DNA from: a virus
Taxonomy: Duplodnaviria > Heunggongvirae > Uroviricota > Caudoviricetes
IMG/VR virus record: IMGVR_UViG_3300028610_001217
Strand: one strand, 5' to 3'
DNA: 64,000 nucleotides
Position numbers and translations under genes: made by a program. Within the stretch, counting starts at the first letter, position 1, and each line of letters begins with the position of its first letter. Shown one piece after another: positions 4,414 to 26,175 of this stretch. Below the pieces are notes generated by a model that was not told the origin of the DNA, did no database searches, and was given only the letters and a program-made list of their open reading frames with translations.

Positions 4414-4902
4414 CTAGCTCACCTCCTCTCGGACTGCTTTTCCCCCGATACTGAAGGCTGAATATTCCCCACTTTTCACTTTAGCCCAGGTGTCTGAGTC
4501 ATCGATTTTGAAACCGATCCACCACGCAACTGGCAAGGTTCCTTCAGGAATGCCTAGAGCTTCTTGTTTTTCAACCGTAAAAACCATTGATTCTACTAAG
4601 CGGCCTATCCCATCTATGCGCTTATGCATAGCCCCAGCTCTGCGAGCATCTAGAGTAAAGTCATATGCTGCCTTTTCTAAAACTTCTTCTTCAATAATGT
4701 CGCCCTGGCTATCGATAATAACCTCACCAGCCTTATCAACCGCTACCGATAGCCAACCGAATACCAATTGCCTATCTTCATCTGTTTTAGCAATATCAAA
4801 TTGTGTTGACCAAGTATCTGATTTATCCATTTCCCTCGATTCATTAGTATTTGACTTGTGCTTCCTTATTGTCTTCACTATGCTTTTCAATTTATTGAAC
4901 AC
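4414..4902 (-). CDS. putative prohead protease, XkdF-like (Peptidase S78-like)
   Basis: 162 aa. QLVFGWLSVAVDKAGEVIIDSQGDIIEEEVLEKAAYDF resembles the XkdF-type phage protease signature. Located between the MuF and scaffold genes. Confidence 0.45.
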   Translation of the reverse strand: MFNKLKSIVKTIRKHKSNTNESREMDKSDTWSTQFDIAKTDEDRQLVFGWLSVAVDKAGEVIIDSQGDIIEEEVLEKAAYDFTLDARRAGAMHKRIDGIGRLVESMVFTVEKQEALGIPEGTLPVAWWIGFKIDDSDTWAKVKSGEYSAFSIGGKAVREEVS

Positions 4903-5207: not shown

Positions 5208-5381
5208 ATTTGTAAGCAGAAGTTCAACTCCTTTAGGCGCACATGTAATAACATAAATATTAATCGCACCACATCTACTACACTTAATGCTTACACGTCC
5301 ATCTGTATACCCCAACAACTTATCACAATCATAGCACCTTATTGCTTCCATTCCGACCGTTGATGGCTTCACTGTTGTCAT
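5208..5381 (-). CDS. Mu Com-like zinc-ribbon small protein (57 aa)
   Basis: Translated by hand: MTTVKPSTVGMEAIRCYDCDKLLGYTDGRVSIKCSRCGAINIYVITCAPKGVELLLTNR. The CxxC...CxxC layout and IRC..C.KLL / I.C.RCG motifs resemble the Mu Com translational activator. The start overlaps the stop of the upstream ORF (ATGA). Below the ORF-track size cutoff. Confidence 0.4.
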
Positions 5382-5683
5382 TCAGGCTCCCATCCTTGTA
5401 GTTGTACCCATAGTGTTTCGAGAGCGTTTTCTAAACTACCTTTAGCGATATTAGCCATTGACATGAATGCTACATTTTGAAACCCTTGCTGTAGCCATTC
5501 AAGCTTTCTTAATGGACCGCCCTTTTTATATCGCTCGGTTTCCATAATGAAATCTATAACCGGGTCTTCGCTGAAGGTCTTACCATCTAAGGATATAAAT
5601 CCATTGCCTTCGTCGTCTGTAAGTAGTAGCGCCTTACCTGCTCCCTCACTAGGAAAGAACTTCATGAATGAGAAATACATCAT
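5378..5683 (-). CDS. hypothetical protein
   Basis: 101-aa ORF, 4-nt overlap with the MuF gene stop. Confidence 0.4.
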   Translation of the reverse strand: MMYFSFMKFFPSEGAGKALLLTDDEGNGFISLDGKTFSEDPVIDFIMETERYKKGGPLRKLEWLQQGFQNVAFMSMANIAKGSLENALETLWVQLQGWEPE

Positions 5684-8600
5684 GTTAATATCTCCAATAA
5701 CGTTTTAGCCCGAAAAACGAAATGTCCTGCATCAAACAAATCTCCGCCAACACCAAATGCATCAATAAGTAATTCCTCAGGAATATCGGAAACCCAATCA
5801 TCAGACAATTCTTGCGTTACATTATTTAATAAAACAATTATTTCGGATCGCATTTCCAATAAATCTGGAGTTAAGCGCGACCTAAGGCTAGGAGAGGAAA
5901 ATATTGCAGGAACATTGACCGCAATATCTTCACCAAAAGTAGCTAGGCCATGATCGATAGCCAATATATTTTCTATCTCATTAATATTTCCCTTTGAACC
6001 GACAATCATATAATTTCCTAAATGACGATCTTCGTTTCCTATGAAAACATCAAAAAGCTTCATTCTCTGCCAGCCTACATTTTTTGATATTTCGCTTGTG
6101 AATTTTATCCCTTCTGGCACATTTTTCTCAAACATTCTTGCTGTTCTGGCTCCAGGGAACTTTTCTTTCAATGATTTTGTTGCCACCCACCAATCTCCTC
6201 TATGCTTGAAGGAAACTACTGCTGGCACATTCACGCCAAAATATTTACCTATCTTTGATGATACAATTTCGCTGATTACTTCAGTATCTCCCGGTCTTTT
6301 TAGAAACCACTCTTCGTCGTTGAACTCAGCCACACGAGAAACATTTGATCCTGACCTTAAGTTTTCTCGCACGTTTTTAAAATCGCTAAACTTCTTAGGT
6401 AATGTGGCAATAGGGGTTGGCTTATCCACCCCTGCAATAACTCCCGTTGGTGAGATATCTAATACCATGGCGCAACGGCAATTATGAACAACAAACCCTT
6501 TAGCTATATAAGATTCATCTTCTTCTACGGAAAAATTGAATAATTTAATTTTTCGTGTAGGTTGATATTTCTCAACCTTAGTTATTTCAACTTCTACAAA
6601 AGAATATTCTTCATTATGATTCATGAGGATTCTTTTTGCTTCATCTTTAACTAAACTTTCATCCTTCATTTCATCTTCTGAAAACCTTAAAACAGTCCAT
6701 CCTTCTTTTTCTATTTTTACTTGTCTGACCGAATCTTTTTCCTTATCTTGATGCCAATAATTACCATCTACTTCGATAGCAACTTTATATTTCGGCAATC
6801 CAAAATCGACAAAATAATTTAGTATAGGTTGCTGGGGTACATATTCCAAGCCTAATTCATCCAATATTATCTTCATTCTTTTTTCAAGGGAACTCATAAA
6901 CCCTTTTTGAGCCATAATGGAATTAGGGTGCTTTTCTGGGTGCGCAAGCATAGTTTTCTTGTAAGATTCGGTCATACGTTTACGAACTTCTGGGATCAAA
7001 CTAGGGTTATTTTTCTTCATACGTTCAGAACTTGCTTTTCTGTGTTGAGGTAAATTTGTTACAAGCTTATTTTTCTCAATTACCCAATCTTGTTGAAAAG
7101 GGTGTTTTCCTTCGGCAGCCATTTCCCTAGTAGCTTCATGAGCTTTCTTGGTAATGGCAGCGCCGTCCCTTGTTCCGTTGCTGTATTCTCTGCGTAATTG
7201 AGCTGAAGTTTTTGCTGATATTAACCGCCTATGTTCTTCCGACTTCCACTGCCTATCAGTTATATCAAGGCTGCAACACCTATCAGAACAATACTTATTA
7301 TCCATCGGGATATCTTTACCACAACGAACACACTTAGCCGCCATATACTTAATCTTTTGGCCTGGTTTCGCATCCTTAGCCTCAACCCACTCCCCGTCGA
7401 TTAAAATTGGGTGATTATCAGTCAAGGTCAAAGTCGCGCAACCATACAATTTAATCTTTACAATAGTTGGGGTTTGCTTAGGCGTTTGAATAAGCTTAGT
7501 TACCTTGCGAAACCTACCTTTATGCGTAAGAACTAAATCATCAACTTTAATTTGCCCTACTTGCTTCCAGCCCTTTGACGTAAAAATAGGCGTCTTATAA
7601 CTAACTAAGCATTGTGGGTGTAGCGGTGGCGTCAGTGTTGGGTTAAACGCTCTAGTTCCACCTCTTTGAAGTTCCACTGTTCCAGACTCAAATAAACCCC
7701 TTAGTGGAACAATTTGCCCATCCATAGGTCTGCAAAAGTCGCAAAGACGATCGTCTGGGGTGACCACCCATCGTCTAACGGCTACGCTTTCATCTATTAA
7801 GCCCCTATCAGCTGCTTGCTCCCAGATAGCTTGTTGCCCCATATTTGAGGAGCGTATGGTTTCGGTTCTAGCAATCATCTCAGATCGTAGTTTCAAGTGC
7901 TTTTTACGGAATTTTTCTGTCATCCGGTCGATGCGTTCTTGCGTTAGCGGTACTGTCTTGAACGGGCTTTTTCCCCTAGCCATTTGATCTTCGAGGTCAC
8001 GCTTGAAATTTATTACGGCATTAGCTTGTCTGTCCGTAAGGCCAACTATTTGTCGTATTTCCCTAGCTGCGGCTTTCGGAACAATACCTTCATTTATAGA
8101 TCTTGCTATAATGCTCCGCACGCCTAACTTCGTTTGCTCAGTAACAGCAGTAACCATTATGGCCGCATTCTCAGCAGCCCACCTCTCAGCTTGCTCAAAA
8201 GATATGCCCAACCCAGCAGCAACATCTACGCCGAGGAGTGCATCGGCTTTTTCAATTTCGATAGGAGGCAGTAAGTCAATTAGGGCCAGCATGAACAAGG
8301 TTGTGTTATCAGCCTTCCGGAATCGGGAACCACGCCAAACACCATCATTACCTTCACGACTCGAAGATTTTATCCATTCAGGCTTAATATCTTGCCCTAT
8401 AAGCTTCAAGCCTGCGGCAAGATTCTCATCTTGTTTTAACTTAGCTCCTATGCTTTGAGGTAATTCAACTCTTAAAATAATAGGGATACTTGATCTTCCG
8501 GTACGCTCCTCATATGCTTCTGTAGCAAAATTAGCCATTCCTTTAGCTGCCTTGAAGTCCTTGGTTACAAAAACCGCTTGACCATTTTCACCCTCATACC

Positions 8601-9132
8601 AATCAACACCCAATTCCTTCCAAGCTTCCGTATCTCCTGTTCGTTGAGGTGGCTTAAACTTTATTCCTTTATTGTTGATTGAATTAAAATACTTACTCAC
8701 GGTTCCATGGAAAACAGTTATCGGGGCAGCTGCTCCCGGATGATACCTCCCATAATTAGGATCGTCACTTGATCCATGCTTCTCGATAGCCGGAGTAACA
8801 CCTTCAGCACCCCTAGATACGGCAAAGATATCCTCAACTGAAGCTTCTGCGCCATCCATTAAAGTTTCCACTAATACCTTCGCAACAGGCATAAGCTTTT
8901 TCTCCATACCCGCGAAGTTAATCGCTATCTCGGCCCCGATAGGATCTTGAACTTTTAAGGCTCCCTCAAGGAACCCCATCCTAACGTCTTTTTCAAATAA
9001 GCCTAAAGCCTGTTCCGTCGCTTCCTGAACAGCAGGAAGGTATTCGTCAGCAATATCATTAAACTTCTGCCAAGCCGGTTCGACTTTTTCTATAAAATCA
9101 TCAAATGCTTTTAAAAGGGCAAGTTTATTCAT
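5680..9132 (-). CDS. MuF-like head morphogenesis protein with intein and C-terminal PI3/4-kinase/HipA-like kinase domain
   Basis: 1150 aa. Residues about 310-507 plus 885 onwards carry Mu gpF/SPP1 gp7 features (IARTETIRSSN ... TPPLHPQ | CRCAMV), split by an intein at residues 508-884. The C-terminal 260 aa contain FDVFIGNEDRHLGNYMIV and ILAIDHGLATF (DRH catalytic-loop and DFG-like motifs). Confidence 0.8.
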   Translation of the reverse strand: MNKLALLKAFDDFIEKVEPAWQKFNDIADEYLPAVQEATEQALGLFEKDVRMGFLEGALKVQDPIGAEIAINFAGMEKKLMPVAKVLVETLMDGAEASVEDIFAVSRGAEGVTPAIEKHGSSDDPNYGRYHPGAAAPITVFHGTVSKYFNSINNKGIKFKPPQRTGDTEAWKELGVDWYEGENGQAVFVTKDFKAAKGMANFATEAYEERTGRSSIPIILRVELPQSIGAKLKQDENLAAGLKLIGQDIKPEWIKSSSREGNDGVWRGSRFRKADNTTLFMLALIDLLPPIEIEKADALLGVDVAAGLGISFEQAERWAAENAAIMVTAVTEQTKLGVRSIIARSINEGIVPKAAAREIRQIVGLTDRQANAVINFKRDLEDQMARGKSPFKTVPLTQERIDRMTEKFRKKHLKLRSEMIARTETIRSSNMGQQAIWEQAADRGLIDESVAVRRWVVTPDDRLCDFCRPMDGQIVPLRGLFESGTVELQRGGTRAFNPTLTPPLHPQCLVSYKTPIFTSKGWKQVGQIKVDDLVLTHKGRFRKVTKLIQTPKQTPTIVKIKLYGCATLTLTDNHPILIDGEWVEAKDAKPGQKIKYMAAKCVRCGKDIPMDNKYCSDRCCSLDITDRQWKSEEHRRLISAKTSAQLRREYSNGTRDGAAITKKAHEATREMAAEGKHPFQQDWVIEKNKLVTNLPQHRKASSERMKKNNPSLIPEVRKRMTESYKKTMLAHPEKHPNSIMAQKGFMSSLEKRMKIILDELGLEYVPQQPILNYFVDFGLPKYKVAIEVDGNYWHQDKEKDSVRQVKIEKEGWTVLRFSEDEMKDESLVKDEAKRILMNHNEEYSFVEVEITKVEKYQPTRKIKLFNFSVEEDESYIAKGFVVHNCRCAMVLDISPTGVIAGVDKPTPIATLPKKFSDFKNVRENLRSGSNVSRVAEFNDEEWFLKRPGDTEVISEIVSSKIGKYFGVNVPAVVSFKHRGDWWVATKSLKEKFPGARTARMFEKNVPEGIKFTSEISKNVGWQRMKLFDVFIGNEDRHLGNYMIVGSKGNINEIENILAIDHGLATFGEDIAVNVPAIFSSPSLRSRLTPDLLEMRSEIIVLLNNVTQELSDDWVSDIPEELLIDAFGVGGDLFDAGHFVFRAKTLLEILT
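6481..7611 (-). mobile_element. intein (377 aa) with Vsr/DUF559-like endonuclease domain inside the MuF gene
   Basis: Starts with Cys (CLVSYKT, block A) and has LTLTDNHPIL (block B). Ends ...GFVVHN followed by extein +1 Cys (CRC). Internal region YFVDFGLPKYKVAIEVDGNYWHQDKEKD...GWTVLRFSEDEM matches the DUF559/Vsr-like PD-(D/E)xK endonuclease pattern. Also carries a CVRCGKD...CSDRCC zinc motif and NUMOD3-like basic repeats. Confidence 0.8.
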
Positions 9133-10612
9133 CAGATTTTAAGGCACTAAGGACTGCACTTTTCATTACCTTAACTGCTTCGACCAACTCTTCCTTGCCG
9201 TCAGGTTGAGGTGTTTTCGGTTCTTCCTTGGGTTCTGTTTTAGGCTTAGGTTTCGGCTTAGGTTTAGTAGTCGCTACACCTTCCTCAGGCACTTCTGCGG
9301 CAGCCGGAATAACCCTATCTTCGTCTTCAGGAGCCATAGGTAAACCAGCAACATCCCGTAAGTAATTTTCAAGCTCGACATCACCTTGCAGGTTAATCCC
9401 TACGCCAGTAAGGTTGCCAAGATAAGCACCGAGTTCAGCTAAGTCTGGCGTTTCAATATCGCCCGGAACTAACTTCGGTAGTTCCTCAAGGTTTTCGCCG
9501 TTAAGTTCAAACAACCGTGGTATTGCGTGCCGGTTAAATACGTCCGCAATCATATTAGTCCAAGCACCAATAGCGGCGGCAAACATCTCAGTCTTAGAGC
9601 TACTAAGGGCAAATGAGCCTACCGACTTCGTGCCCAAGAAGATAAAGTCCGCTAATACTGTCATCGCAATACGCTGGTCATAGCGATTGATAATCGCCTC
9701 TGTATCAAAATTCCGCTTACCGCCTGAATTGAGCAATGCAAGCTCTAATAGTTTGTTGTTGTTATCATCGAAAATAGCGGGAAGGACTACGCCCTCCTGC
9801 TCGTCACGCTTAATGTTTTGCACAATAGTTTTGGCATCTGCATAAGCGTTTTTTAGCCCTTGCGGAGCATTAGCATCCGTCCATTCTGACGGAACAGTTA
9901 AAACCGGGAAGCCAGCCAAATCACGTTCAATGCCGATAGCTTCAAAAGTTTGAATGCGCTTCTTTAGGAACCAGGATTGATATATGCTCCTCAAGATAGA
10001 TTCACCTTCAGGGCTACCCTTATGAACGCTCGTTCGGAACAATAGCGCCTTTGTTATTGGGATCGTAAGAAGTTGGTATTCAGGCGGTGGGTTTTGAATC
10101 ATGGCATTTACTCCGCCCTCATCATCCATTTCCCAGTGATCTAGTGAGTCCTGTGACCGAATAGGCAATTTCCGCCAACCAATTTTCCCGTCATTAAACC
10201 GGCTGCGCTTACTTGCGTTCTTATCCCGCCCGTTTCTAAACTTATAGACAATCTCATGATATGACCAGCCCCAAGGTAGGAATGATAGAATTTCAGCCAA
10301 AGTATCTTCCCAGGATTGTGACATATCATTAATAACGCCCTCCATAAACTCCTTAGCTTCAATATCCTTAGGGTCATCGCTTGCTGCTTGAAACGTCCAG
10401 GGGACTTGCCGAATAAGCATCTCAATAGCAAAAAGGATAGCACCAATTGTGGGGTCATTGGCTTGCATTTCTTTATAAACCCTGCGTCGTTCAGTTTCAC
10501 TTTGAAGCTGCCGTAACTGCTCCTCAAAAAGCCGACCATCAAAAATATTTAGGCCGGTTTTGCCGACCTCACCTGTATCGAGCTTCAATACTCTATCTTT
10601 TTTGTCCGTCAT
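9125..10612 (-). CDS. portal protein
   Basis: 495 aa, immediately downstream of terL and upstream of the MuF gene. C-terminal low-complexity tail KPKPKPKPKTEPKEEPK. Confidence 0.7.
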   Translation of the reverse strand: MTDKKDRVLKLDTGEVGKTGLNIFDGRLFEEQLRQLQSETERRRVYKEMQANDPTIGAILFAIEMLIRQVPWTFQAASDDPKDIEAKEFMEGVINDMSQSWEDTLAEILSFLPWGWSYHEIVYKFRNGRDKNASKRSRFNDGKIGWRKLPIRSQDSLDHWEMDDEGGVNAMIQNPPPEYQLLTIPITKALLFRTSVHKGSPEGESILRSIYQSWFLKKRIQTFEAIGIERDLAGFPVLTVPSEWTDANAPQGLKNAYADAKTIVQNIKRDEQEGVVLPAIFDDNNNKLLELALLNSGGKRNFDTEAIINRYDQRIAMTVLADFIFLGTKSVGSFALSSSKTEMFAAAIGAWTNMIADVFNRHAIPRLFELNGENLEELPKLVPGDIETPDLAELGAYLGNLTGVGINLQGDVELENYLRDVAGLPMAPEDEDRVIPAAAEVPEEGVATTKPKPKPKPKTEPKEEPKTPQPDGKEELVEAVKVMKSAVLSALKSDE

Positions 10613-10624
10613 ATTTATATTCCT

Positions 10625-12133
10625 CTAAAATACATAATTGGGACTTTCTCTTGCAAAATCTTCATTTCCACTAAGACTAACATTGGCATAACTCCTCTTG
10701 CTGCCCAACCTCACTAAGGCTTGGGACATAGCGTCAACTTGGTCATCGTGAGCACCATTAGGAAATAGCGCACACTCTTCAACAAAATCATGTGCCCACT
10801 GAGCGTTATTAGGAAGAAAAACATTACCAGCTTCAATATCCCAACTGATAGCTTGCGCTCTAGCTTCCTTACCGCCCTTGGGCTCTACAGGAATAATTCC
10901 CGGTATTTCATTTTTTAAGACCTGTATGACAGCAATGCCATTAGCCTTATCTTCAATCAATTTCCCCCTAGCTTTCGGCCACTTCCTAGTCATCATTCTG
11001 ATGGCTGCAATTGTAGCCGGGAAGTCCATTTGGTCTCGAACTTGATCTAATAAATACTTATTAGCGCCCTTACGTCCCCAAATTTGCCCTACAACATAAG
11101 AACTGGTTTTTAAATCTTTAAAAGAACAATCCCAAGACTGGATTATTTCCTCCATAGGCATAGGCGGTTCATCAAAGAATTTCCACCATGCTCGTTTTAG
11201 GATGCCACCTTCGGACGGTGATGGTCTTTGTTGGTAGAGTGACGCCCACATTCTAGCGCCATACGTGCCCTTGTAAGAACCCTTAATAGCTTGTAATCTT
11301 TCTAGTGGCCACCTTTCTTCATGAAGAGCTTCACCAACTTTCCTATGAGCCTCCTTTTGCTCTGCCATAGCAGGATAGGCAATACAATCCCACTGGTCTC
11401 CGCCGACTTTTTGTGCCTCAAGTAACCTACCTGGTAGGTCATCTTCGTTCCACCTTGTTACGCACAAGAGGACGCCACCACCTGGGCTTAACCTGGTATA
11501 AGCTGTAGATAAATACCATTCCCACGTTTTCTCGCGGTAGGTTGTACTGTCAGCTTGTTCCGCATCTTTTATGGGGTCATCTAAAATAAGAATATCAGCG
11601 CCCATCCCAGTAATACCGCCACCGACGCCGGTACTACGATACATACCATGGTGTCCCACTATTTCAAAAATATCGGTAGTCCGCAAATAACCCCTAGCGC
11701 CACTGTGATTAATTCTCCGCATTTTAGTGCCAGCTAACATAGTGTCAGGAAATAGGTTTTTGTATTCTTCGGAATCTATAATGCGTTGAACGTTCCGGTT
11801 AATACCGGCGGCAAAATCAGCCCCATAGCTTGTAGCTATAATCTGGAGGTCCGGATTTAGCCCGAACGCCAAAGCAGGCAAACGCCTAGAAACCAGCTCC
11901 GTTTTTCCGTGCCGTGGCGGCATAAATATCATCAATCGCGGCGAGCGCTTAGCCTCCACATCTTTTAAAAACTGATCTAAGCGTTCAGCTATCTCCTCGT
12001 GAACCCAACCGGCTTGGTAATCCGGCTTGGTGTAATGAGTAAAATGAAGTAGCTTACGGCTAGCTCTTGCTCTTTTTACTTCCGTTAGCCCGACTGCTAT
12101 TTCTTTTTGCACCCTGCTTGTTGCCGTTGACAT
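10625..12133 (-). CDS. terL: terminase large subunit
   Basis: 502 aa. N-terminal ATPase region with MPPRHGKTE (P-loop-like) and LILDD (Walker B-like). C-terminal nuclease-like Asp cluster (FPNGAHDDQVDAMSQAL). Gene order TerS, TerL, portal. Confidence 0.85.
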   Translation of the reverse strand: MSTATSRVQKEIAVGLTEVKRARASRKLLHFTHYTKPDYQAGWVHEEIAERLDQFLKDVEAKRSPRLMIFMPPRHGKTELVSRRLPALAFGLNPDLQIIATSYGADFAAGINRNVQRIIDSEEYKNLFPDTMLAGTKMRRINHSGARGYLRTTDIFEIVGHHGMYRSTGVGGGITGMGADILILDDPIKDAEQADSTTYREKTWEWYLSTAYTRLSPGGGVLLCVTRWNEDDLPGRLLEAQKVGGDQWDCIAYPAMAEQKEAHRKVGEALHEERWPLERLQAIKGSYKGTYGARMWASLYQQRPSPSEGGILKRAWWKFFDEPPMPMEEIIQSWDCSFKDLKTSSYVVGQIWGRKGANKYLLDQVRDQMDFPATIAAIRMMTRKWPKARGKLIEDKANGIAVIQVLKNEIPGIIPVEPKGGKEARAQAISWDIEAGNVFLPNNAQWAHDFVEECALFPNGAHDDQVDAMSQALVRLGSKRSYANVSLSGNEDFARESPNYVF

Positions 12134-15039: not shown

Positions 15040-15801
15040 TTAGAGCTCAGCAAAACTAATCGAACCTCCCCATGGTAGACGCTCGACTTTAAGGTTGTTG
15101 ATATCTAGTTCTTCCAAAACAGCCCGAGTTTCCCCCGGCCATGCCCTTAAGTTAAGTTCATCGAAAGCTATAATTGCACCTTTAGGCATTCTGGGAACTA
15201 AATGTTGGAGAGCCGTTTTTGTGGGGGCATATATATCGAAGTCGCAGAATAAAGTTGAGATTATTAAGTGCTGATTATTCTTGATATACTCTGGGATAGT
15301 TTCGCAAGCATCCCCTTTAACGATTTCAACTTTTGGCAGGTGCCCAATTGTGCGATTCTTGTCATATAGTTTAACCGCCTGCTCTATCGTTGCCTTACTA
15401 TCTACCTTGAAGCCGTCTTCTTTGGCCTCAACAGATTTACCTTCAGCTATGTCTTGAACTGATAATTGCGTAATACCATCAAAAGTATCGAACCCAATAA
15501 TTTGACGTTGCATATTTACCGGCTCCATGATAGCAGAAAGATGCGCCCACCAAAGTAATCCACCACCGAATAATACCCCGCACTCAACAATTGAACCTTG
15601 AACATTTAAGGCTCGCTTGAATATTTCGTACTTAGTTAAGTAACGTGTTAAGTCTTGCCTTGCCGTAAATAGTGGAAAGTTTTGCATTTTCTCATAACCA
15701 GAATATTCGCAATCGGTGATAAATTGCTCCATTTCCCCCGAATATGATTGTTCTTCTGTTGACCTAGTTGATTCTGAGAATCTGTACGCTTTCTCCGTCA
15801 T
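15040..15801 (-). CDS. TylF/MycF-family SAM-dependent O-methyltransferase
   Basis: GSIVECGVLFGGG motif and macrocin-O-methyltransferase-like size and arrangement. Confidence 0.65.
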   Translation of the reverse strand: MTEKAYRFSESTRSTEEQSYSGEMEQFITDCEYSGYEKMQNFPLFTARQDLTRYLTKYEIFKRALNVQGSIVECGVLFGGGLLWWAHLSAIMEPVNMQRQIIGFDTFDGITQLSVQDIAEGKSVEAKEDGFKVDSKATIEQAVKLYDKNRTIGHLPKVEIVKGDACETIPEYIKNNQHLIISTLFCDFDIYAPTKTALQHLVPRMPKGAIIAFDELNLRAWPGETRAVLEELDINNLKVERLPWGGSISFAEL

Positions 15802-16625
15802 TAACCCCCCAATAGCCCTAATTGCTTCAAGTAATAGTCTGTGCCGTTACCTCTAACTTTTCGGTAAGCAGCTGCGGTCATTTGACTTCTCACCCTTGAG
15901 TTTTTTAGTCTATTAATATTCCCAACTATCCGCTCAACCGGGATTTCCCTAATCCACCCCAAGCTTACTGCTGCCCCCGCTTTATTAAGCTTCATACAAT
16001 TAACAGTTTGTTCGGGTGAATCAGTAACCAGTAAGCTGGGTACACCTAATAAAGCCAACTCCCACGCCGTAATCCCCCCCGCGCTAATCGCGATATCTGA
16101 TGACTGCATATTAGTAATTATATCTGCGCCGCCAGGATCAACTCTTTGTAACCCTAATTCATCCAAAGCTGAGTCAACGGTATCAGAAAAACTATCATCA
16201 ACCCTAACAAATACACGTTTAATTTGCGGCCTAACCCTGAATGGCCTCTTTCTCGCTTTCCAAATGTCCTCGCGGAACATTGGGTCTGCATTATCGTCAA
16301 TAGCGACTACCTTCAGTTCATGACCCATTAACTTTGCGCAGTAATCAAGCCCTAGCTTGTAACTGTCAACAACGATATACTCTGCATGAAAACCCTTAGC
16401 TATCCCAACTGTTTGACCCACGTCATGATCAGCGTCTATCAAAACACAAAACATGCCCGCATCATTTATAAGTTCGCTGATGAACTCAGTATTCTGACCC
16501 ATTATAAATACGGGGGTAGCATTCTTAGCTCTAATTGCCTGAGCTAAAGCAAAGCACCGCATAGCATGACCTTGGCCGAACTTTTGGCCGTCGTCGGCGT
16601 CGCACCGAATTGCGATGTTACTCAT
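15801..16625 (-). CDS. PseG-like UDP-sugar hydrolase (UDP-2,4-diacetamido-2,4,6-trideoxy-L-altropyranose hydrolase family)
   Basis: IAIRCDADDGQKFGQGHAMRCFALAQAI matches the PseG/SpsG N-terminal signature. Confidence 0.65.
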   Translation of the reverse strand: MSNIAIRCDADDGQKFGQGHAMRCFALAQAIRAKNATPVFIMGQNTEFISELINDAGMFCVLIDADHDVGQTVGIAKGFHAEYIVVDSYKLGLDYCAKLMGHELKVVAIDDNADPMFREDIWKARKRPFRVRPQIKRVFVRVDDSFSDTVDSALDELGLQRVDPGGADIITNMQSSDIAISAGGITAWELALLGVPSLLVTDSPEQTVNCMKLNKAGAAVSLGWIREIPVERIVGNINRLKNSRVRSQMTAAAYRKVRGNGTDYYLKQLGLLGG

Positions 16626-17260
16626 GGCTTACCCTTATAGGCGTAGCAACAAAAATCAGCATCATCAGGATCTATGTAGTCCGTTCTTAAGACAACATAT
16701 GGTGTCATAGTATAAAGATAGCCTAGTATTGAATGGGGTGACAACCAAGTAACCCCAGGTATTTTTTCAGTTCTCATCATACCTGACCAAACTGAAGTAA
16801 ACGCTACTGCAAACTTAGATAGCCTAGCCATATGACTGATTAACTCTAAAACCTTTTTGCCGCCCTCTTCGTTGTTGGGTAACTTATAGAAAATGCCTTG
16901 AGCTAACACCACGTCATATTGCTTTTGGCCGCCGGTTAACAAATCTACTGGCCAATACGTCTCTAGGTCGGCATGAATAAGGTTAAGGTCATGGTTTTCC
17001 TTATTACCAACTTGAATTGCCCTCAGAGAAATATCTATGCCGGTGTAGTTGCTGACCGTCATACCCCTAGTTGAAAGATAACGCCCCAGCCCACCATAAT
17101 TACAGCCCACGTCTAGAACGCTCTTACCATTCAGATCGCAAACTTCACTCAATGCCTTATACCGGGCATCTAACAAGCGCTGATTACCGGCATCCACTGC
17201 TTTAGGCGTTGCGCCATGCTTCATTGCAAGCTTATCATAGAACTTAGCTATGTCAGTCAT
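16622..17260 (-). CDS. class I SAM-dependent methyltransferase
   Basis: VLDVGCNYGGLGRYL motif I. Confidence 0.6.
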   Translation of the reverse strand: MTDIAKFYDKLAMKHGATPKAVDAGNQRLLDARYKALSEVCDLNGKSVLDVGCNYGGLGRYLSTRGMTVSNYTGIDISLRAIQVGNKENHDLNLIHADLETYWPVDLLTGGQKQYDVVLAQGIFYKLPNNEEGGKKVLELISHMARLSKFAVAFTSVWSGMMRTEKIPGVTWLSPHSILGYLYTMTPYVVLRTDYIDPDDADFCCYAYKGKP

Positions 17261-17444
17261 TTTGTGGCATCAATTCAATTAGCACCGTTCTTATTAACTC
17301 AAATGCTTCAACCCTGTTAAATCCTGCGTTCATATATTCTACGAACATTTCGTGTAACTGAACTGCGGCTATCTTCAATTCCGTTATTCCAAATTCTTCT
17401 TCATTTTCAGGCAATGCATTCCCCCAATACTCTGACGACTTCAT
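17253..17444 (-). CDS. hypothetical small protein
   Basis: 63-aa ORF inside the sugar island. Confidence 0.3.
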   Translation of the reverse strand: MKSSEYWGNALPENEEEFGITELKIAAVQLHEMFVEYMNAGFNRVEAFELIRTVLIELMPQND

Positions 17445-18402
17445 TCTGCTCTTCTTTGGTTATTGTAACGTAATACGGCAGCGAAATTATATGCCTAAAT
17501 GCCTCGTCAACTTCTGGCAAATCCTTAGGCCAATCAACCCACAGTCGATAATCAGTTACAGGTGCCATTGCCATTACGCCGCGCTCTTGCATGGCTGCAA
17601 CAACGTCAGTCGTTAGGTGATGTTTCTCCAGCCTTACCGTGTACCTATAAGGTAATTTGGCATTACAAGCTTGATAGTTCTCTAGCAGTGGATCATAATA
17701 GTCGGCCACCTTACGTTTTAAGTCCATCTCCCAAATAAGCTTTGACATCTTACTAAGGGCAATCGCAGCACCTACATCGTTGAAAAGGTCATTTTGCTTT
17801 AACGATGGTGGCTTATTACCGTAAGTCCTGAGGTCTTTGACTTTATCGATTAGCTCCTCGCTGCCACTTACAATGCCCCCGCCAGTTGAACCTATAAATT
17901 TAGTGGGATAAAAGCTTGTGATAGCCAAATCAGCAGTTTGCTCGACTAAGGTATGACACATATCCTCAATAACTGGAATGCCTAGATTCCTCAGCGGCTT
18001 AATCTTGGCCTCATGCCCAAACATGTGAACCGCTATAATGGCACGAGTTTTAGGCGTTACTTTAGCCGTTACCGAGTACGGATCAAGGCAAAGTGTATCG
18101 CCATCTATATCGGCTAACACCGGAACAGCCCCGATCGTGAGGATTGCATTGTGCAACGCAACACAATTGTAAGCTGATATAATTACTTCGTCACCCGCTA
18201 GTACCCCTAGCGCCTTTAAACCCAACCTGAGCGCTGTCAGGCCGCTGGAGACAGTAGCAGAAGCTGTTGCCTTAACCGATTTAGCCCATACATATTCAAG
18301 TGTTTCGCACGCAGGCCCAGAAGCCAAGAAACCGCTGGCTATAACCTCTTGAGCGGCCAACATTTCCGCCTCACCGAAAAGCGGTTTATTGTGGGGTATC
18401 AT
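17407..18402 (-). CDS. DegT/DnrJ/EryC1/StrS-family PLP-dependent sugar aminotransferase
   Basis: 331 aa; N-terminus MIPHNKPLFGEAE...ASGFLASGP is typical of the family. Second aminotransferase in the island. Confidence 0.75.
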   Translation of the reverse strand: MIPHNKPLFGEAEMLAAQEVIASGFLASGPACETLEYVWAKSVKATASATVSSGLTALRLGLKALGVLAGDEVIISAYNCVALHNAILTIGAVPVLADIDGDTLCLDPYSVTAKVTPKTRAIIAVHMFGHEAKIKPLRNLGIPVIEDMCHTLVEQTADLAITSFYPTKFIGSTGGGIVSGSEELIDKVKDLRTYGNKPPSLKQNDLFNDVGAAIALSKMSKLIWEMDLKRKVADYYDPLLENYQACNAKLPYRYTVRLEKHHLTTDVVAAMQERGVMAMAPVTDYRLWVDWPKDLPEVDEAFRHIISLPYYVTITKEEQNEVVRVLGECIA

Positions 18403-18649
18403 TAGCCGCTTTCGCTAACTCTTTGATAAATAGTTCAGCAAAGCCTTCACTCTCACAACCATCTTCACAACTGCAAGCGATACACTGGATGCAATAATTT
18501 TTGTCAGCAATTTCTTTTGCGACCTTCCTAATTAAACCTTCTTCGTAAAGAGCAATATGATAATTAAGAGATCCAACAATTTTACTCAAAGTCACCCACC
18601 TTGATCTTGCCGACCGGAATACCTTCATACCACCAAACGATTCCTTCAA
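18386..18649 (-). CDS. hypothetical Cys-rich protein
   Basis: CIQCIACSCEDGCESEG cluster; 87 aa. Confidence 0.3.
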   Translation of the reverse strand: MKESFGGMKVFRSARSRWVTLSKIVGSLNYHIALYEEGLIRKVAKEIADKNYCIQCIACSCEDGCESEGFAELFIKELAKAANDTPQ

Positions 18650-19154
18650 TTCTGACCCTAGGGTTATAGATACTCCTGCAATCGTTTAATAATGTATGTA
18701 AATCGTCGAAATCTGTAGATGCGACGTACAACTCTAAGCCCTCACGCATGCGCGGATCCGAAAACAGAAATATAAATGGTTTATCTAACGTAAGCGGATT
18801 ACCCTGAATTTTGGGACCAATTGCTTCGCCCGACCATTCACCATCCGATGTATTGGTAAAGTTTGTATTATTTACTGCTACCCACATGTGTTGATCGGCG
18901 GGATCAAGTGATTCGGCATCAGTATACCAAGGATCAACTATCCCCTCTGCCTTTTGCTCCTTCCTGGGATTGCGACGTTTCTCTAATCTGACGCAACGTC
19001 CTGCCCGAATAGTCACGCGGACATTAGTGCCATCTAGTTTCTCAGTAGCCACGGCACCTTCCGGCAAGTCAACAAGTCTTTTATCGATTACATAATGCTT
19101 GCCTCGTTTGCCGTCACCATAATCTCTGTCAAAAATTGTTGGAATTTTCCTCAT
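18582..19154 (-). CDS. nucleotidyltransferase of the RNA/DNA ligase superfamily (KxDG motif)
   Basis: TEKLDGTNVRV (motif I lysine), later EGIVWW and KIKV (motif IV/V-like). Small (190 aa). Confidence 0.4.
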   Translation of the reverse strand: MRKIPTIFDRDYGDGKRGKHYVIDKRLVDLPEGAVATEKLDGTNVRVTIRAGRCVRLEKRRNPRKEQKAEGIVDPWYTDAESLDPADQHMWVAVNNTNFTNTSDGEWSGEAIGPKIQGNPLTLDKPFIFLFSDPRMREGLELYVASTDFDDLHTLLNDCRSIYNPRVRIEGIVWWYEGIPVGKIKVGDFE

Positions 19155-19164
19155 TTAACCCCCA

Positions 19165-19599
19165 TTAAAATATTGCCATTCTTATGTGGCCTTCAGGCTC
19201 ATGTTTACCCTCCGGGTAGAAACCGCATTTACGGAAAGCCCCTATACTGCGCTCGTTTTCCTCCCGAATGACCGCAACAACCTTAATGATGCGCCACTTT
19301 TCAAAAACTTCCCTAACCCCCATATTAATTGCGGTTATTGCTACGCCGCCACCCCTGTGATCTTCGCTGATATATATGGAGACAACAGCTTCCTCATCCA
19401 CCCTATCAAACCGGATGAAACCAACATTAGGCTCAATTATATAATACAAAACCTCGTCACTTGCTATGGCAACTGGGTAATATATTAAATGTTGCTCCCA
19501 GCTTACCGCCTTTTGCGTAGTTGTTACGCTTATCATATCGGGCATGTTCCGCCAATTAAACACCGTCCGCATATCAGTCTTCTTGGCGAGGCGAATCAA
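19165..19599 (-). CDS. GNAT N-acetyltransferase (PseH-like)
   Basis: HRGGGVAITAI acetyl-CoA-binding motif A; 144 aa; sits in the Pse island. Confidence 0.5.
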   Translation of the reverse strand: MIRLAKKTDMRTVFNWRNMPDMISVTTTQKAVSWEQHLIYYPVAIASDEVLYYIIEPNVGFIRFDRVDEEAVVSIYISEDHRGGGVAITAINMGVREVFEKWRIIKVVAVIREENERSIGAFRKCGFYPEGKHEPEGHIRMAIF

Positions 19600-19799
19600 T
19601 GTGTAATCCTTATTTCATCAGCAAAATTCAATAATTCTTCTGCTATTAACCTAATATCAGCTTCATTAAATACGCCAAAACCACCTTCTATATAAACAAC
19701 CACTTTTTTCTCACTCGATATATACGAAACTAAGTCCCCTTTTTTCATTTCTCCAGATAATATATATTCTCTTGCATCTCCAGTTACTACTTCCGCCAT
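19596..19799 (-). CDS. SAF-domain protein (detached C-terminal domain of NeuB-type synthase)
   Basis: 67 aa; VVTGDAREYILSGEMKKGDLVS resembles the SAF/antifreeze-like C-terminal domain. Its ATG overlaps the TGA stop of the upstream NeuB barrel (ATGA). Confidence 0.45.
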   Translation of the reverse strand: MAEVVTGDAREYILSGEMKKGDLVSYISSEKKVVVYIEGGFGVFNEADIRLIAEELLNFADEIRITH

Positions 19800-20524
19800 C
19801 AGCCTATTGTCGCCTTAAGCTGTTTAAGCTCAGTAGTATCTAAGGACCACCAATGATCTGGCCCATCAGCTTCATGTTCAAGCGTAAAATGGACTTCAAT
19901 AGCTACTGCCCCTAATTCAGTGGCACGTATGCAAACATCTACTCCTTGTTTTCCCGCTACATGATTGCTGTACCCGCAAGTATATCCCATGTTTTGTATT
20001 GCTCGTATTTTCCACAATTTGGGGTAAATGCAAGGATATTGTGATTCGCAATGAAGAATTAAATCTTCTGGATTAGCTATTTCGTGAAGGTTGTTTAAAT
20101 CTGCTACATGACCCATTGATATAACAATCGGTAGATTTTGACGATGCATTTCTTTTATCATTTCAGTATTGAATATCATATCTGATGCAACTTTTAAGGC
20201 GCATACACCTAAGTCAACCATCTCCTTGACACCTCGGGCGCTAACAGTGGTAACAAAAAACGGAATACCTACTAATTCACAATGTTCTTTTATTTCTTGC
20301 CATTGCCCTAATGAAAATTCATGACGCTTAAATAAATCAAATAAACTTTCACCATTATGCATACCGCTACTATCAAAATCTTCTGGGGGTGCATGTTGAA
20401 ATTTAACGTAATTAGCCCCAGCGCTAACCGCTGCATTGATAGTTTCTTTGGCTAATTCAATTAACCCATTATGATTTAGGCCAATTTCGGCTATAAGTAT
20501 AGGCGCAGTCCCGACTTTATGCAT
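19799..20524 (-). CDS. NeuB-family nonulosonic acid synthase, TIM-barrel part (PseI/NeuB-like)
   Basis: [12 protein letters not shown]...YVKFQ ... GYSNHV ... IEVHFTLE canonical NeuB motifs. Lacks the fused SAF domain, which is encoded by the next ORF. Confidence 0.75.
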
Positions 20525-21254
20525 TAATAATTTTCATCCCCTCCAACAAAGCTTGTCTAGCATTTTTTCTAATATCTCTCTCCCAAAGCCTAATTACCTT
20601 ATAGCCTTTATCTTTCATATAAGCATCACGCTTTCTATCTGATTCCCTTCCATCAGGATAGTTATGCCAATAGTCCCCGTCGCATTCTATTACTAGGTTG
20701 CAACAAGGGATGAAGATATCTGGGAAATATGGACTAATACGTTTGCCAATTTGGTGCGTTATATTGAGAAGCCCCAATTCTTTACAAATAGCTATTTCGA
20801 TTGAAGATGGATTGGCGGTTCGCGCCAACCAAGCATTTTCTAAATAATCTCTTCGCTCATGAATATCCCTAGCAGCCCATACTTTTTTGCCAGCAATACT
20901 CATTTTATTTTTAGCGGCATTAGTATGTTTATGCCCCTTAAAGCAGCCATCCCGACCCTTGTTGGCCTTACTTATATTTTGTCGATGTTCTTGAGTAAAA
21001 GTTTTTTGCCTACCTGCTTGCTTAAGTTTTTCTATAGTTTCTTCTGAATACACCCCTTTCCGCCCTTTGTTCCAAGGAGTATTCCCAGTCATTCGTTCCC
21101 TAATCTTTTCACAATGTTCTTTAGAAAACTTTTTCCCTTTATGCGCAACACTCATACGATTCTTAGTTTCTTCAGAATGCTTTTTACCTTTGCTCGACTC
21201 ACTTATCTTTTTCTTAGTTTCTTCAGGCATTGGTCTACCTTTTGACCAACTCAC
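20517..21254 (-). CDS. homing endonuclease-like protein: NUMOD3 repeats plus Vsr/DUF559-like nuclease domain
   Basis: [29 protein letters not shown] repeats (NUMOD3-like). C-terminal [22 protein letters not shown]...[20 protein letters not shown] (DUF559/Vsr-like). Confidence 0.7.
20660..20731. repeat. 72-nt exact repeat, copy 1 (shared with 22481..22552)
   Basis: agttatgccaatagtccccgtcgcattctattactaggttgcaacaagggatgaagatatctgggaaatatg is identical at both loci. It encodes the [23 protein letters not shown] core of the two endonuclease genes. Confidence 0.9.
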
Positions 21255-21276
21255 AATTAAACTTCCTCAATTTCAA

Positions 21277-24051: not shown

Positions 24052-24175
24052 CCTACTGCACCTTTTTTATGAAAGCCTATTGTGAAAAACCCTAGATCTA
24101 TGAACAAAGCTTTATCTGCTGGAATAATTTCTACCCCTATTCTAAAAATTCCCCAATGCTGATCACTATAAGCCA

Positions 24176-25691: not shown

Positions 25692-25905
25692 TCCTGTCTC
25701 TCTTTCTGCCTACCTATCTGCCTAGCCGTTAATCAAACAGTCTTGCACTATTTTAACCTAAAAAGAAAAAGCCCAACGGTCTGACGCCCGTCGAGCCTTT
25801 TCTAAATTCGTAACCGGATCCTTAAAGGGTTATCAACCCCCTTGGACCTCAAACATCGGAGCCCGTAAAAGCTAAAAGCAAGAGCACGACCTCGCTATCC
25901 GATAG

Positions 25906-25977
25906 AAGCTACGGCTGGATTCAAACCAGCGTGGAACGGTTTTGCAAACCGTTGCCTAATCACTCGGCCACGTAGCC
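25906..25977 (-). tRNA. tRNA-Cys(GCA)
   Basis: Hand-folded cloverleaf: anticodon stem ACGGT/ACCGT, loop TTGCAAA, T-arm GCTGG-TTTGAAT-CCAGC, U73 discriminator. Confidence 0.65.
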
Positions 25978-25985
25978 ATAAACAG

Positions 25986-26058: not shown

Positions 26059-26175
26059 ATAAAAGGGATAGTAGGTGCACCCTAGAAAGCTATTCCAAGT
26101 ATGCCCTCAGCCAGCAACGCAACGGTTTCCGTGGTCTTGTGTCGTTCTGAACTAGTTGCCGAACCTTTACCCTAG

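Follow-up and report, generated by a model that had tools for sequence, protein, structure and literature searches.

Among injected phage proteins that have been studied, most act as ADP-ribosyltransferases, nucleases or alarmone synthetases or counter restriction, and gp7 of phage SPP1, a member of the MuF family, leaves the capsid together with the DNA. MuF proteins form a structural part of the phage head (PMC5512222), and fusions to diverse effectors predicted to be injected have been reported (PMC5512222, PMC5576092, PMC9503650). Described kinase cargoes (PMC5512222, PMC3482391) are of the S/T/Y type lacking a C-lobe, the P-loop zeta-toxin type and the lantibiotic-synthetase-type peptide kinase, while a literature search returned no description of a PI4K/CtkA/HipA-class kinase as MuF cargo. 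As cited in PMC5512222, the kinase Gp0.7 of phage T7 phosphorylates host proteins of transcription and translation, and T4 Alt is a head-carried, host-modifying ADP-ribosyltransferase that is injected with the DNA. Here, a 64,000-nucleotide stretch of DNA (the window) from an uncultured tailed phage was analyzed, in which a predicted kinase of the PI4K/CtkA/HipA type is joined to a MuF protein across an intein.

Gene organization and head-module context

The gene and its parts are arranged as follows, with an ortholog (P0002) as reference for identities.

5680..9132, minus strand: whole gene, a single ORF of 1150 aa for a predicted intein-containing multi-domain MuF minor head protein
8728..9132, minus strand: conserved N-terminal region (aa 1-135), 73% identical to the ortholog
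8731-8781, minus strand: junction motif EKHGSSDDPNYGRYHPG (aa 118-134) ending the N-terminal region, recurring in contigs L003/L007
8233..8727, minus strand: variable inserted cassette (aa 136-300), possibly of ART fold (Tpt1/KptA-like), with weak Tpt1 matches
7612..8232, minus strand: N-extein portion of the MuF (head morphogenesis) domain (aa 301-507), phrog_3517 E 2.3e-38
6481..7611, minus strand: predicted intein (Cys1 ... His-Asn / Cys+1) of 377 aa (aa 508-884) within the MuF motif HPQ^CRC, from Pfam and TIGR01443
6595..7341, minus strand: endonuclease insert within the intein (aa 598-846), zinc ribbon plus DUF559/Vsr-like nuclease, DUF559 52.3 bits, E 6e-14
6376..6480, minus strand: start of the C-extein, where MuF ends with CRCAM (aa 885-889) and a linker of about 30 aa (aa 890-919) follows, 69% identical to the ortholog
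5692..6375, minus strand: predicted atypical protein-kinase-like domain (aa 920-1147) of the PI4K-II/CtkA/HipA/Fam20/CotH branch, PHROG 3162, from profile and fold
5378..5683, minus strand: 101-aa ORF with its start codon overlapping the kinase-gene stop (shared ATGA; stop at 5680-5682), also called on the source contigs
Predicted splice-junction peptide of the spliced MuF-kinase: ...TPPLHPQCRCAMVLDISPTGVIAGVDK

The reading frame from 5680 to 9132 is uninterrupted on the minus strand, and the 1150-aa precursor is predicted to yield a spliced product of 773 aa. Two metagenome contigs of independent origin, one of 93 kb from JGI and one of 102 kb from ENA, encode identical copies of the protein, so the gene is not an assembly artefact. 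Genes of the head module follow the order terminase (10625-12133), portal (9125-10612), MuF-kinase, protease (4414-4902; a prohead protease of the S78 type on the source contigs), scaffold and capsid (1858-2817). The MuF-kinase gene hence adjoins the portal inside the head-morphogenesis module, which is the placement of MuF-type genes.

Toward the N-terminus, the protein appears to be assembled from exchangeable parts. The slot at residues 136-300 is occupied by a GNAT-like cassette in the ortholog and by none in L014, a fragment of the same lineage, and motifs of the EKHGSSDDPNYGRYHPG type occur 8-9 times at cassette borders of the related contigs L003/L007. Matches of the cassette to Tpt1 are weak and located at its FHGT motif (E 0.04-0.06), and searches against Pfam and PHROG as well as a word-index protein search gave no match; an ART-fold domain of the Tpt1/KptA-like kind is possibly present at this place.

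MuF domain and intein

Membership of the protein in the MuF family, as claimed in the original prediction, holds on several grounds. In addition to the phrog_3517 match (about 2e-38) and the position of the gene between portal and protease, Phage_Mu_F (PF04233) is matched by the unspliced protein with 32.6 bits against a cut-off of 29.6. In-silico splicing raises this score to 43.8 bits, with the match now crossing the junction to profile position 111/112, and rebuilds the MuF motif HPQ/CRC (H-P-x-C-R-C type). As judged by these matches, the 1150-aa protein is a MuF minor head protein. Its N-extein MuF part is 82% identical to that of the ortholog.

The intervening segment matches Intein_splicing, PT-HINT and Vint in Pfam as well as TIGR01443 for the intein C-terminal region (24.9 bits versus a cut-off of 15.6). 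Intein hallmarks were found in C508, the block-B TDNH within ...LTDNHPIL..., VVHN/C885 and the insertion into a conserved host motif, all pointing to an element that would be spliced in vivo. A mini-intein occupies the same insertion site in the ortholog, and 240 of the 249 residues of the endonuclease insert (aa 598-846) have no counterpart there; matches of this insert to Vsr and MTES_1575 are weaker than that to DUF559.

A C-terminal atypical kinase domain

The C-extein of 266 aa (aa 885-1150) corresponds exactly to the interval 5683-6480 for which a kinase had originally been proposed. That proposal located the kinase motifs within the roughly 260 residues behind the intein. Kinase sequence proper spans aa 920-1147, and the first 35 C-extein residues consist of CRCAM, with which MuF ends, and the 30-aa linker. 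The kinase domain proper, with a size of about 210-230 aa, thus has MuF and linker upstream and nothing downstream.

When the C-extein was searched with phmmer against 1.84 billion representatives, 18 matches at E<=1e-3 were obtained, including proteins with a PI3_PI4_kinase domain (E 2.4e-13 and 2.9e-13). A profile built without the window protein and the ortholog recovered the kinase domain with 88.6 bits (E 5.5e-20, 1.8 billion proteins), and phrog_3162, labelled 'unknown function', matched it with E 1.5e-10. Sequence similarity of the C-extein to kinases is therefore, by these scores, far beyond chance. Against PDB sequences, phmmer of the C-extein gave noise only, whereas the family profile found Fam20 (2e-10), PI4K-IIalpha (8e-10), actin-fragmin kinase (2e-5) and CtkA (8e-4). 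In Pfam, HipA_2 (PF20613, 25.7 versus a gathering score of 27) and PI3_PI4_kinase (PF00454, 21.3 versus 27.1) were both just missed by the C-extein. The relatives P0004, P0005 and P0017 score above the PF00454 threshold, which places the family in the clan with the window protein as a divergent member. PADLOC showed catalytic-loop matches to PDC-M03A, a component of a candidate system, which adds only fold membership.

Structure prediction, suggested earlier as a check of the fold, likewise gave a kinase and not some other fold. The AF2 model obtained from a 29-sequence alignment is a bilobal kinase with an N-lobe beta-sheet including alphaC and a helical C-lobe; it confirms the family fold but is not fully independent, as the input alignment was assembled from family members, and AlphaFold on the single sequence reached a pLDDT of 33. 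Top structural matches of the HipA-like model are PI4K-IIalpha and PI4K-IIbeta, and the xylosylkinase Fam20B is among the best. Taken together, profiles and model assign aa 920-1147 to the atypical kinases of the PI4K-II/CtkA/HipA/Fam20/CotH branch of the protein-kinase-like superfamily.

As a separate observation, the best structural match, PI4K-II, is a lipid kinase, which counts against simply assuming a protein substrate.

Catalytic residues and selection

Conservation of predicted catalytic residues was assessed in an alignment of 29 domain copies, which share 18-26% identity with the window domain, except for the ortholog copy with about 56-57%.

6298..6300, minus strand: K945, predicted ATP-binding beta3 lysine, column at least 90% conserved
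6268-6270, minus strand: E955, predicted alphaC Glu partner of K945, column at least 90% conserved
6001-6054, minus strand: FDVFIGNEDRHLGNYMIV (aa 1027-1044), holding the DRH catalytic loop, with DRH at 6022-6030
6013..6030, minus strand: DRHLGN, the catalytic loop (aa 1035-1040), with D1035 as predicted catalytic base and N1040 as predicted metal ligand, D and N invariant
5935-5967, minus strand: ILAIDHGLATF (aa 1056-1066), with DHG at 5947-5955
5947..5958, minus strand: IDHG (aa 1059-1062), DFG-equivalent, D1060 predicted metal-binding Asp, D invariant and I at least 90% conserved

Five positions (D1028, N1033, D1035, N1040 and D1060) are invariant among the 29 copies, and R1036 is, like K945 and E955, at least 90% conserved. 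In the profile search of the PDB, DRHLGN comes to lie opposite the DRH loops found in Fam20 and PI4K-II. Reading DRHxxN and DHG as kinase hallmarks was thus justified, these motifs being invariant in a family in which the beta3 Lys and the alphaC Glu are retained as well, and homologues lacking them, which would have spoken for a structural domain, were not seen, as every homologue retains both. Since K945, E955, D1035, N1040 and D1060 for ATP-Mg binding and phosphotransfer are all kept, the domain is taken as a predicted active kinase.

A catalytically dead pseudokinase serving as structural, DNA-end-binding or portal-binding head module could be considered because the branch does include pseudokinases, with FAM20A among the best matches, and because the window domain stays below the Pfam thresholds. 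With the five catalytic positions and the Lys-Glu pair intact in both the window protein and the ortholog and near-invariant in the family, this explanation is highly improbable.

Between window protein and ortholog, pN and pS of the kinase amount to 0.27 and 0.66, respectively, compared to a pN of 0.11 for MuF, the dN/dS values being rough due to synonymous sites near saturation. The kinase is under purifying selection and evolves faster than the MuF domain.

Relatives in other phages

The kinase family is found in further head-module proteins of phages, often as 2-4 tandem copies or beside Alt-like ADP-ribosyltransferases. In an unrelated phage, P0005 combines a MuF C-terminal end with two kinase copies and is encoded between portal and S78 protease. 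P0009, P0013 and P0014 bear the kinase together with Alt-like ADP-ribosyltransferases, the P0009 gene lying directly downstream of a portal/MuF-like polyvalent gene. Matches in BFVD come from cultured and uncultured phages (among them uncultured Caudovirales, Mycobacterium phage Onyinye, Gordonia phages GodonK and Sixama, and the haloviruses HHTV-1 and HSTV-2) and include proteins of 1100-1480 aa named 'phage head morphogenesis domain', 'portal' or 'ADP-ribosyltransferase'. Other searches were nearly empty: tblastn against 50,697 phage records gave no match with the C-extein, P0004 or P0014 as query and, with one domain copy of the actinobacterial type, a sole match to a gene of Myxococcus phage Mx1 annotated 'kinase'; the word-index protein search gave none with the C-extein and one with the family alignment; and scans of viral sequences, metagenomes and genomes returned nothing beyond the same rare lineage (L007, L003/L013 and the fragment L014). 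Accordingly, the 18 representatives and the BFVD matches are the basis of the architecture census.

These contexts bear on when and where the kinase might act. Synthesis late in infection, with action in the infected cell or procapsid on scaffold, portal, capsid or late host targets and not after injection, would suit a gene located within the late head-morphogenesis operon and the assembly role of MuF proteins, reflected in 'head morphogenesis' annotations of PHROG. However, the kinase changes more rapidly than its MuF partner domain, is duplicated two to four times or joined to Alt-like ARTs in relatives, and is absent from most MuF proteins: in 107 phage records, the genes matched by tblastn, labelled MuF or 'capsid maturation protease', cover only aa ~293-506. 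Fast evolution together with duplication and Alt-ART pairing is a pattern that suits conflict effectors and not assembly factors, and a kinase acting late is accordingly rated as quite unlikely.

Somewhat less unlikely, but still not expected, is an active kinase that phosphorylates a lipid, a sugar, a cell-envelope precursor or another small molecule, either at entry or during infection. It would be consistent with the lipid kinases PI4K-IIalpha/beta as top structural matches and with Fam20B, which acts on xylose, ranking among the best matches in both sequence and structure. Moreover, the stand-alone relative P0016 is encoded between an NTP-transferase and a glycosyltransferase gene, and a large block of sugar-biosynthesis genes is present in the window phage.

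Downstream reading frame and phage lifestyle

Translationally coupled to the kinase gene, the 101-aa ORF is also present at the ortholog locus (about 90% identical by eye; phmmer between the copies E 1.4e-62), and its product is a possible partner protein of the kinase. It has no match in Pfam, PHROG or PADLOC. Small overlapping ORFs follow other kinase-family genes as well; the idea that they form one conserved family of partner or immunity proteins was rejected, as these ORFs are not detectably related across loci.

The phage encodes 23 tRNAs as well as DNA hypermodification and anti-defence genes, its contigs measure about 93-102 kb, and no sign of lysogeny was noticed among the scanned genes, a set searched for functions other than integrases. 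It looks virulent rather than temperate. An AADT gene at 60006-61064 had prompted the idea that the MuF-linked kinase is the 5-hmdU DNA kinase of this phage. This was rejected, since a canonical PF18748 kinase (35.1 bits) is encoded at 61688-62305 and known 5-HMUDKs are P-loop kinases (PMC8989533).

An N-terminal MuF domain, a C-terminal enzyme of HipA-like fold and a small translationally coupled downstream ORF recall the MuF polymorphic toxins (Jamet et al., 2017), in which case a growth-arresting HipA-like toxin would be directed against competitors and the 101-aa gene would encode its immunity protein. Also the mutual dissimilarity of the small ORFs behind other family members is what immunity genes tend to show. 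Yet with about 90% versus about 56-57% identity between the two phages, the 101-aa ORF is more conserved than the kinase, contrary to the co-variation expected of toxin and immunity protein; the phage looks virulent, and the MuF toxin domains listed in PMC5576092 include no kinase. A polymorphic toxin is consequently considered improbable.

Proposed function

The explanation that we regard as probable is that a modular MuF head protein delivers an active kinase into the host at infection, where it would act most likely on a host protein. In this mechanism, the intein of 377 aa would be spliced out, thereby joining MuF via the linker of about 30 residues to the kinase of about 230 aa. By analogy with SPP1 gp7, the fusion might then be incorporated into the procapsid by way of MuF and later exit the capsid with the DNA, so that the kinase would be in the cytoplasm ahead of phage gene expression. 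Phosphorylation of host targets could there result in host shutdown or disarmed defences. Conservation of the catalytic residues leads us to infer an active enzyme, with a host protein as the most likely substrate. Presence of the MuF-kinase in the virion and release into the host at infection are probable in view of published MuF proteins (PMC5512222, PMC5576092) and the recurrent head-module and Alt-ART context.

More tentatively, and with clearly less confidence than for the window protein itself, PHROG 3162 as a whole might represent widespread virion-carried kinases on MuF, portal or Alt-ART scaffolds, often in 2-4 tandem copies with His/Gly-rich junction motifs, which would be injected to phosphorylate host proteins of translation, transcription or defence before phage expression, with attachment depending on splicing in the present case.

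As injected phage proteins act before phage genes are transcribed, they are especially likely to serve in taking over the host pre-emptively and in countering its defences. If the proposed role is true, protein phosphorylation at entry would join the repertoire of injected phage functions, and a function would be assigned to PHROG 3162, which is present in cultured mycobacteriophages, Gordonia phages and haloviruses. The kinase domain is small and self-contained with predictable catalytic residues, and toxicity, phosphoproteomic and virion-proteomic assays are therefore easy to design.

Comparison with known systems

Both T7 Gp0.7 and T4 Alt are functional precedents only, the former being expressed early, absent from the virion and of another kinase family, and the latter not being a kinase. 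Helicobacter pylori CtkA (PDB 3AKJ) is a cell-translocating Ser/Thr kinase with 16% identity to the window domain but is a stand-alone bacterial protein acting on eukaryotic cells and not a virion protein. HipA/HipT toxin kinases are 13% identical; neither HipA_N nor HipA_C was matched by the window protein in Pfam, and a HipB-type antitoxin does not adjoin the kinase gene, the neighbours being the portal gene and the 101-aa ORF without family match. Compared to the lipid kinases PI4K2A/B, the window domain is devoid of palmitoylation or membrane inserts and of a helical/PIK domain, and the bacterial host probably lacks the phosphoinositide substrate. The phage proteins of PHROG 3162, or 'PI3K/PI4K catalytic domain-containing' in UniProt, belong to the same domain family but bear automatic or 'unknown function' labels only, a literature search found no paper on them, and none was seen with an intein, unlike the window gene.

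A close resemblance is seen to MuF-fused effectors, i.e., polyvalent proteins (Iyer et al., 2017, PMC5512222) and MuF polymorphic toxins (Jamet et al., 2017, PMC5576092; Zhang et al., 2012, PMC3482391), which likewise combine MuF and one or more enzymatic domains in one polypeptide. Shared are also the gene position beside the portal, the packaging and injection predicted by analogy, and the modular exchange of cassettes, with the N-terminal one being ART-like, GNAT-like or absent in three relatives. Regarding polyvalent proteins, MuF and kinase are seen in the window protein, while a second effector (aa 136-300) shows weak Tpt1/ART-like matches only; regarding polymorphic toxins, a small overlapping downstream ORF is seen, though with stronger conservation than the kinase and without detectable relatives at other loci. 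In contrast to the described MuF-fused effectors, the cargo in the window is a PI4K/CtkA/HipA-type kinase, an intein interrupts the fusion and the phage looks virulent. As fusions of MuF to effectors are already known, this kinase would represent a new cargo on a known delivery scaffold.

Architecture of the MuF Protein and Its Intein

The protein is encoded by a single minus-strand ORF of 1150 codons (window 5680-9132), for which a MuF protein with a C-terminal PI3/4-kinase/HipA-like domain at 5683-6480 had been proposed. An intein starts with C508 and ends in VVHN884, followed by C885; hence, the proposed stretch matches exactly the 266-residue C-extein, and the two quoted peptides, FDVFIGNEDRHLGNYMIV and ILAIDHGLATF, are located at aa 1027-1044 and 1056-1066, respectively. 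Since two independent metagenome contigs (JGI, 93 kb; ENA, 102 kb) code for exactly this 1150-aa protein, the gene is real and not an assembly chimera.

Regions of the 1150-aa protein and flanking genes
aa 1-135: conserved N-terminal region, ending in motif EKHGSSDDPNYGRYHPG
aa 118-134 (window 8731-8781, minus strand): junction motif
aa 136-300 (window 8233-8727, minus strand): variable cassette
aa 301-507: MuF head-morphogenesis domain, first part (phrog_3517 and Pfam Phage_Mu_F)
aa 508-884 (window 6481-7611, minus strand): intein (Hint, Intein_splicing and TIGR01443 matches)
aa 885-889: CRCAM, end of the MuF domain
aa 890-919: linker
aa 920-1147: kinase-like domain
window 9125-10612: portal, on one side of the gene
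window 4414-4902: S78-type prohead protease, on the other side

The terminase gene is found upstream of the MuF-kinase gene, the scaffold and major capsid genes downstream. The MuF part matches phrog_3517 (E 2.3e-38) and, in the unspliced form, Pfam Phage_Mu_F at 32.6 bits (cut-off 29.6), while 107 phage records match the protein over aa ~293-506 only. When the exteins are joined in silico, the Phage_Mu_F score increases to 43.8 bits and the match crosses the splice junction up to profile position 111 of 112, confirming the intein borders as well as the mature MuF-kinase fusion that had been proposed. By this predicted arrangement, the intein must splice for connecting the MuF scaffold to the C-terminal domain.

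The intein is inserted at HPQ^CRC, the most conserved MuF motif, and bears an insert of about 249 aa (6595-7341, minus strand), in which a zinc ribbon is combined with a DUF559/Vsr-like nuclease (PD-(D/E)xK-type) and not with a LAGLIDADG or HNH homing endonuclease. The ortholog, the MuF-kinase protein of a related phage, has a mini-intein without nuclease insert at the identical site, consistent with a mobile endonuclease module.

The Kinase-Like Domain

The isolated C-extein stays below the Pfam thresholds for HipA_2 (25.7 bits; threshold 27) and PI3_PI4_kinase (21.3; threshold 27.1) and matches phrog_3162 ('unknown function') with an E-value of 1.5e-10. An exhaustive phmmer search over 1.84 billion representatives retrieved 18 proteins, comprising the window protein itself, the 924-aa ortholog (58% identity across the C-extein region) and 16 more distant proteins. 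PI3_PI4_kinase matches are present in 13 of the 14 distant proteins scanned, mostly well above threshold and often accompanied by HipA_2, Fam20C or ABC1. Local HMM iteration defined a unit of about 210 residues occurring in one to four copies per protein and corresponding to aa 920-1147 in the window protein. The latter is recovered at 88.6 bits (E 5.5e-20 in a search space of 1.8 billion sequences) by a leave-out profile of 36 unit copies from which it and the ortholog were excluded.

In an alignment of 29 copies (A1), the distant ones being just 18-26% identical to the window domain, D1028, N1033, D1035, N1040 and D1060 are invariant, and conservation reaches at least 90% of the sequences in further columns, among them K945, E955 and R1036. 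These positions represent the beta3 Lys and alphaC Glu of the protein-kinase-like superfamily, its DxHxxN catalytic loop and its metal-binding Asp. The catalytic-loop and DFG-like motifs of the original prediction are thus kept by the homologues (D1035, N1040 and D1060). Accordingly, the active site looks intact and the domain is probably catalytically active, whereas a pseudokinase is unlikely with catalytic residues being invariant.

Compared with solved structures, the A1 profile matches C. elegans Fam20 (E 2e-10), PI4K-IIalpha (8e-10), actin-fragmin kinase (2e-5) and CtkA (8e-4) as well as FAM20A and FAM20B. AlphaFold2 gave a confident model (pLDDT 85.4, pTM 0.85), which depends on A1 as an alignment assembled by ourselves.

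Structure comparison of the AlphaFold2 model (protein, score)
PI4K-IIalpha, 15.4
CtkA, 15.3
CotH, 13.8
HipA, 13.6
Fam20B, 13.4
Actin-fragmin kinase, 13.2

The resemblance to PI4K-IIalpha, CtkA, CotH and HipA bears out the atypical kinase fold suggested beforehand, and Foldseek ranks the same proteins on top, making the fold assignment secure; from profiles and model, the C-terminal domain very probably has a kinase fold. The substrate might be other than a protein: the best structural match, PI4K-IIalpha, belongs to the lipid kinases, and a distant relative that stands alone is located among sugar-nucleotide genes. Between window protein and ortholog, the kinase domain is under purifying selection (pN 0.27, pS 0.66), changing faster than the MuF domain (pN 0.11), with the C-terminal helices changing fastest.

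Occurrence of the Kinase Family in Other Phages

The family census comprises the 18 representatives plus matches in BFVD (predicted viral structures); word-index searches and phage BLAST, both nearly blind to the family, gave almost no matches to it. The lineage of the window phage itself is rare, with two or three related contigs found. In P0005, a distant family member encoded between portal and S78 head-maturation protease of an unrelated phage, a MuF C-terminal end is followed by two kinase copies. Two or three copies are joined to Alt-like ADP-ribosyltransferase domains in P0009, P0013 and P0014, the P0009 gene lying downstream of a portal/MuF-like polyvalent gene at a distance of three small genes, and P0004 has three copies with EHPGHxDQKVHGRRGG junctions between them. 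Several phage and archaeal-virus proteins in BFVD share the kinase fold, under names such as 'phage head morphogenesis domain containing', 'phage portal protein', 'ADP-ribosyltransferase' (Mycobacterium phage Onyinye) and 'PI3K/PI4K catalytic domain-containing' (haloviruses and uncultured Caudovirales). In Myxococcus phage Mx1, an annotated 'kinase' adjoins a 1479-aa Nudix polyprotein. Taken together, the kinase domain recurs as a passenger in proteins of the phage head module and of the Alt type.

In PADLOC, the catalytic-loop region of the C-extein matches PDC-M03A, a candidate anti-phage defence system component (E 7e-9), and the distant relative P0018 does so over a fuller length (E 6e-10). 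By these matches, hosts seem to use related kinases in the conflict as well.

Proposed Delivery and Alternative Roles

SPP1 gp7 is incorporated via the portal and ejected with the DNA. MuF proteins are components of the head and are known to carry effector domains for which injection is predicted (PMC5512222, PMC5576092, PMC9503650). With the MuF scaffold, the intact kinase core and the head-module location as observed basis, the 773-aa spliced protein would be packaged and then enter the cell together with the DNA, where the kinase would phosphorylate host targets. By analogy with CtkA, HipA, CotH, Fam20C and T7 Gp0.7, these would most likely be proteins. We see an even chance for virion delivery of the kinase. 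It is also possible that it acts in assembly or late infection and not by injection, but this fits poorly with domain duplication, ART partners and faster evolution.

The start codon of a 101-aa ORF (5378-5683, minus strand) overlaps the stop codon of the kinase gene. By phmmer, this ORF matches its copy at the ortholog's locus with E 1.4e-62, whereas Pfam, PHROGs and PADLOC gave no match. Other kinase-bearing genes are also trailed by small overlapping ORFs, without detectable kinship to the 101-aa ORF or to each other. A toxin-immunity pair of the Jamet type formed by kinase and ORF is weakened by the conservation of the latter (about 90%, by eye, versus 57% for the kinase) and by the virulent-looking phage.

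Cassettes and Junction Motifs

Comparison of the window with the related contigs L003, L007 and L014 shows that the cassette between N-terminal region and MuF can be swapped. In the window, it opens with FHGT..N.I..GI and shows weak Tpt1/KptA (ART-fold) matches (E 0.04-0.06), the ortholog has instead a GNAT-like cassette (Acetyltransf_10, E 0.012), and in the fragment L014, from about position 1860 on, it is absent and AIEK runs directly into the MuF domain. The junction motif [EK]KHGS(K/S)(S/D)DPNY(G/S)RYH(P/G)G is found a single time in the window MuF protein, right before the cassette. L003/L007 have 8-9 copies of it, bordering the cassettes of two multi-domain proteins encoded upstream (731 and 493 aa), within the MuF protein and, truncated, at the prohead protease N-terminus; the P0004 junctions between kinase copies are analogous. 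The motif may promote cassette shuffling as a hotspot of recombination, mark a site of proteolytic processing, or do both.

In the window, the MuF gene directly follows terminase and portal; the related phage has additional multi-domain proteins upstream of its MuF-kinase gene (L003 632-4795; L007 337-3985) with GNAT-like, ParB-like and metallopeptidase-like segments (by eye), and also an ADP-ribosyl exotoxin-family gene (PF03496), pointing to a larger set of effectors in the head module of this lineage.

Other Genes of the Window

A thymidine-hypermodification-type cluster is located at 58689-62305 and a sugar-biosynthesis block typical of nonulosonic-acid (pseudaminic/legionaminic-type) pathways at 15801-25141 (both minus strand).

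Genes of the two clusters (all minus strand)
61688-62305: P-loop 5-hmdU DNA kinase (PF18748, 35.1 bits)
61030-61677: glutamine amidotransferase
60006-61064: amino acid:DNA transferase (PF18724)
59575-60006: low-molecular-weight phosphotyrosine phosphatase
58689-59597: amidoligase-like protein
17407-18402 and 22978-24051: two DegT/PseC-type aminotransferases
21277-22365: NeuB-type synthase
24176-25141: PseB-like dehydratase
15801-16625: glycosyltransferase

The 5-hmdU DNA kinase is a P-loop kinase (PMC8989533), and with its canonical copy at 61688-62305 this identity was rejected for the MuF-linked kinase. The phosphotyrosine phosphatase is unusual in such a cluster and, as the window's only obvious candidate, could oppose a kinase. 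The 23 tRNA genes cover all 20 amino acids (25905-31805 and 55264-55335, minus strand), 22 of them clustering at 25.9-31.8 kb, and the window's only GC peak (0.52) is at 28-30 kb. Other host-interaction genes (49796-50470, 62546-63073, 52350-53069, 51053-51982 and 57046-58599, minus strand) encode a Tad4-type Thoeris inhibitor (PF25186, E 7e-31), a Fic/DOC protein, an RNA ligase, an SPFH/Band-7 protein and an AAA ATPase.

Comparison With Known Systems

Both polyvalent proteins and fusions of MuF with effectors are well established as concepts. Kinases are absent from the MuF-toxin catalogue (PMC5576092), and literature searches did not bring up any account of kinases of the PI3/4K/HipA/CtkA type on MuF or in the virions of phages, the family being known so far just from automatic annotations and a PHROG of 'unknown function'. 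Kinase cargoes described previously are different, namely an S/T/Y-type family without C-lobe, a P-loop zeta-toxin kinase and a lantibiotic-synthetase-type peptide kinase. Lacking HipA N-domain and HipB, the window protein is not a HipA toxin; likewise, with sub-threshold scores, no accessory domains and probably no lipid substrate, its domain is not a bona fide PI3/4-kinase.
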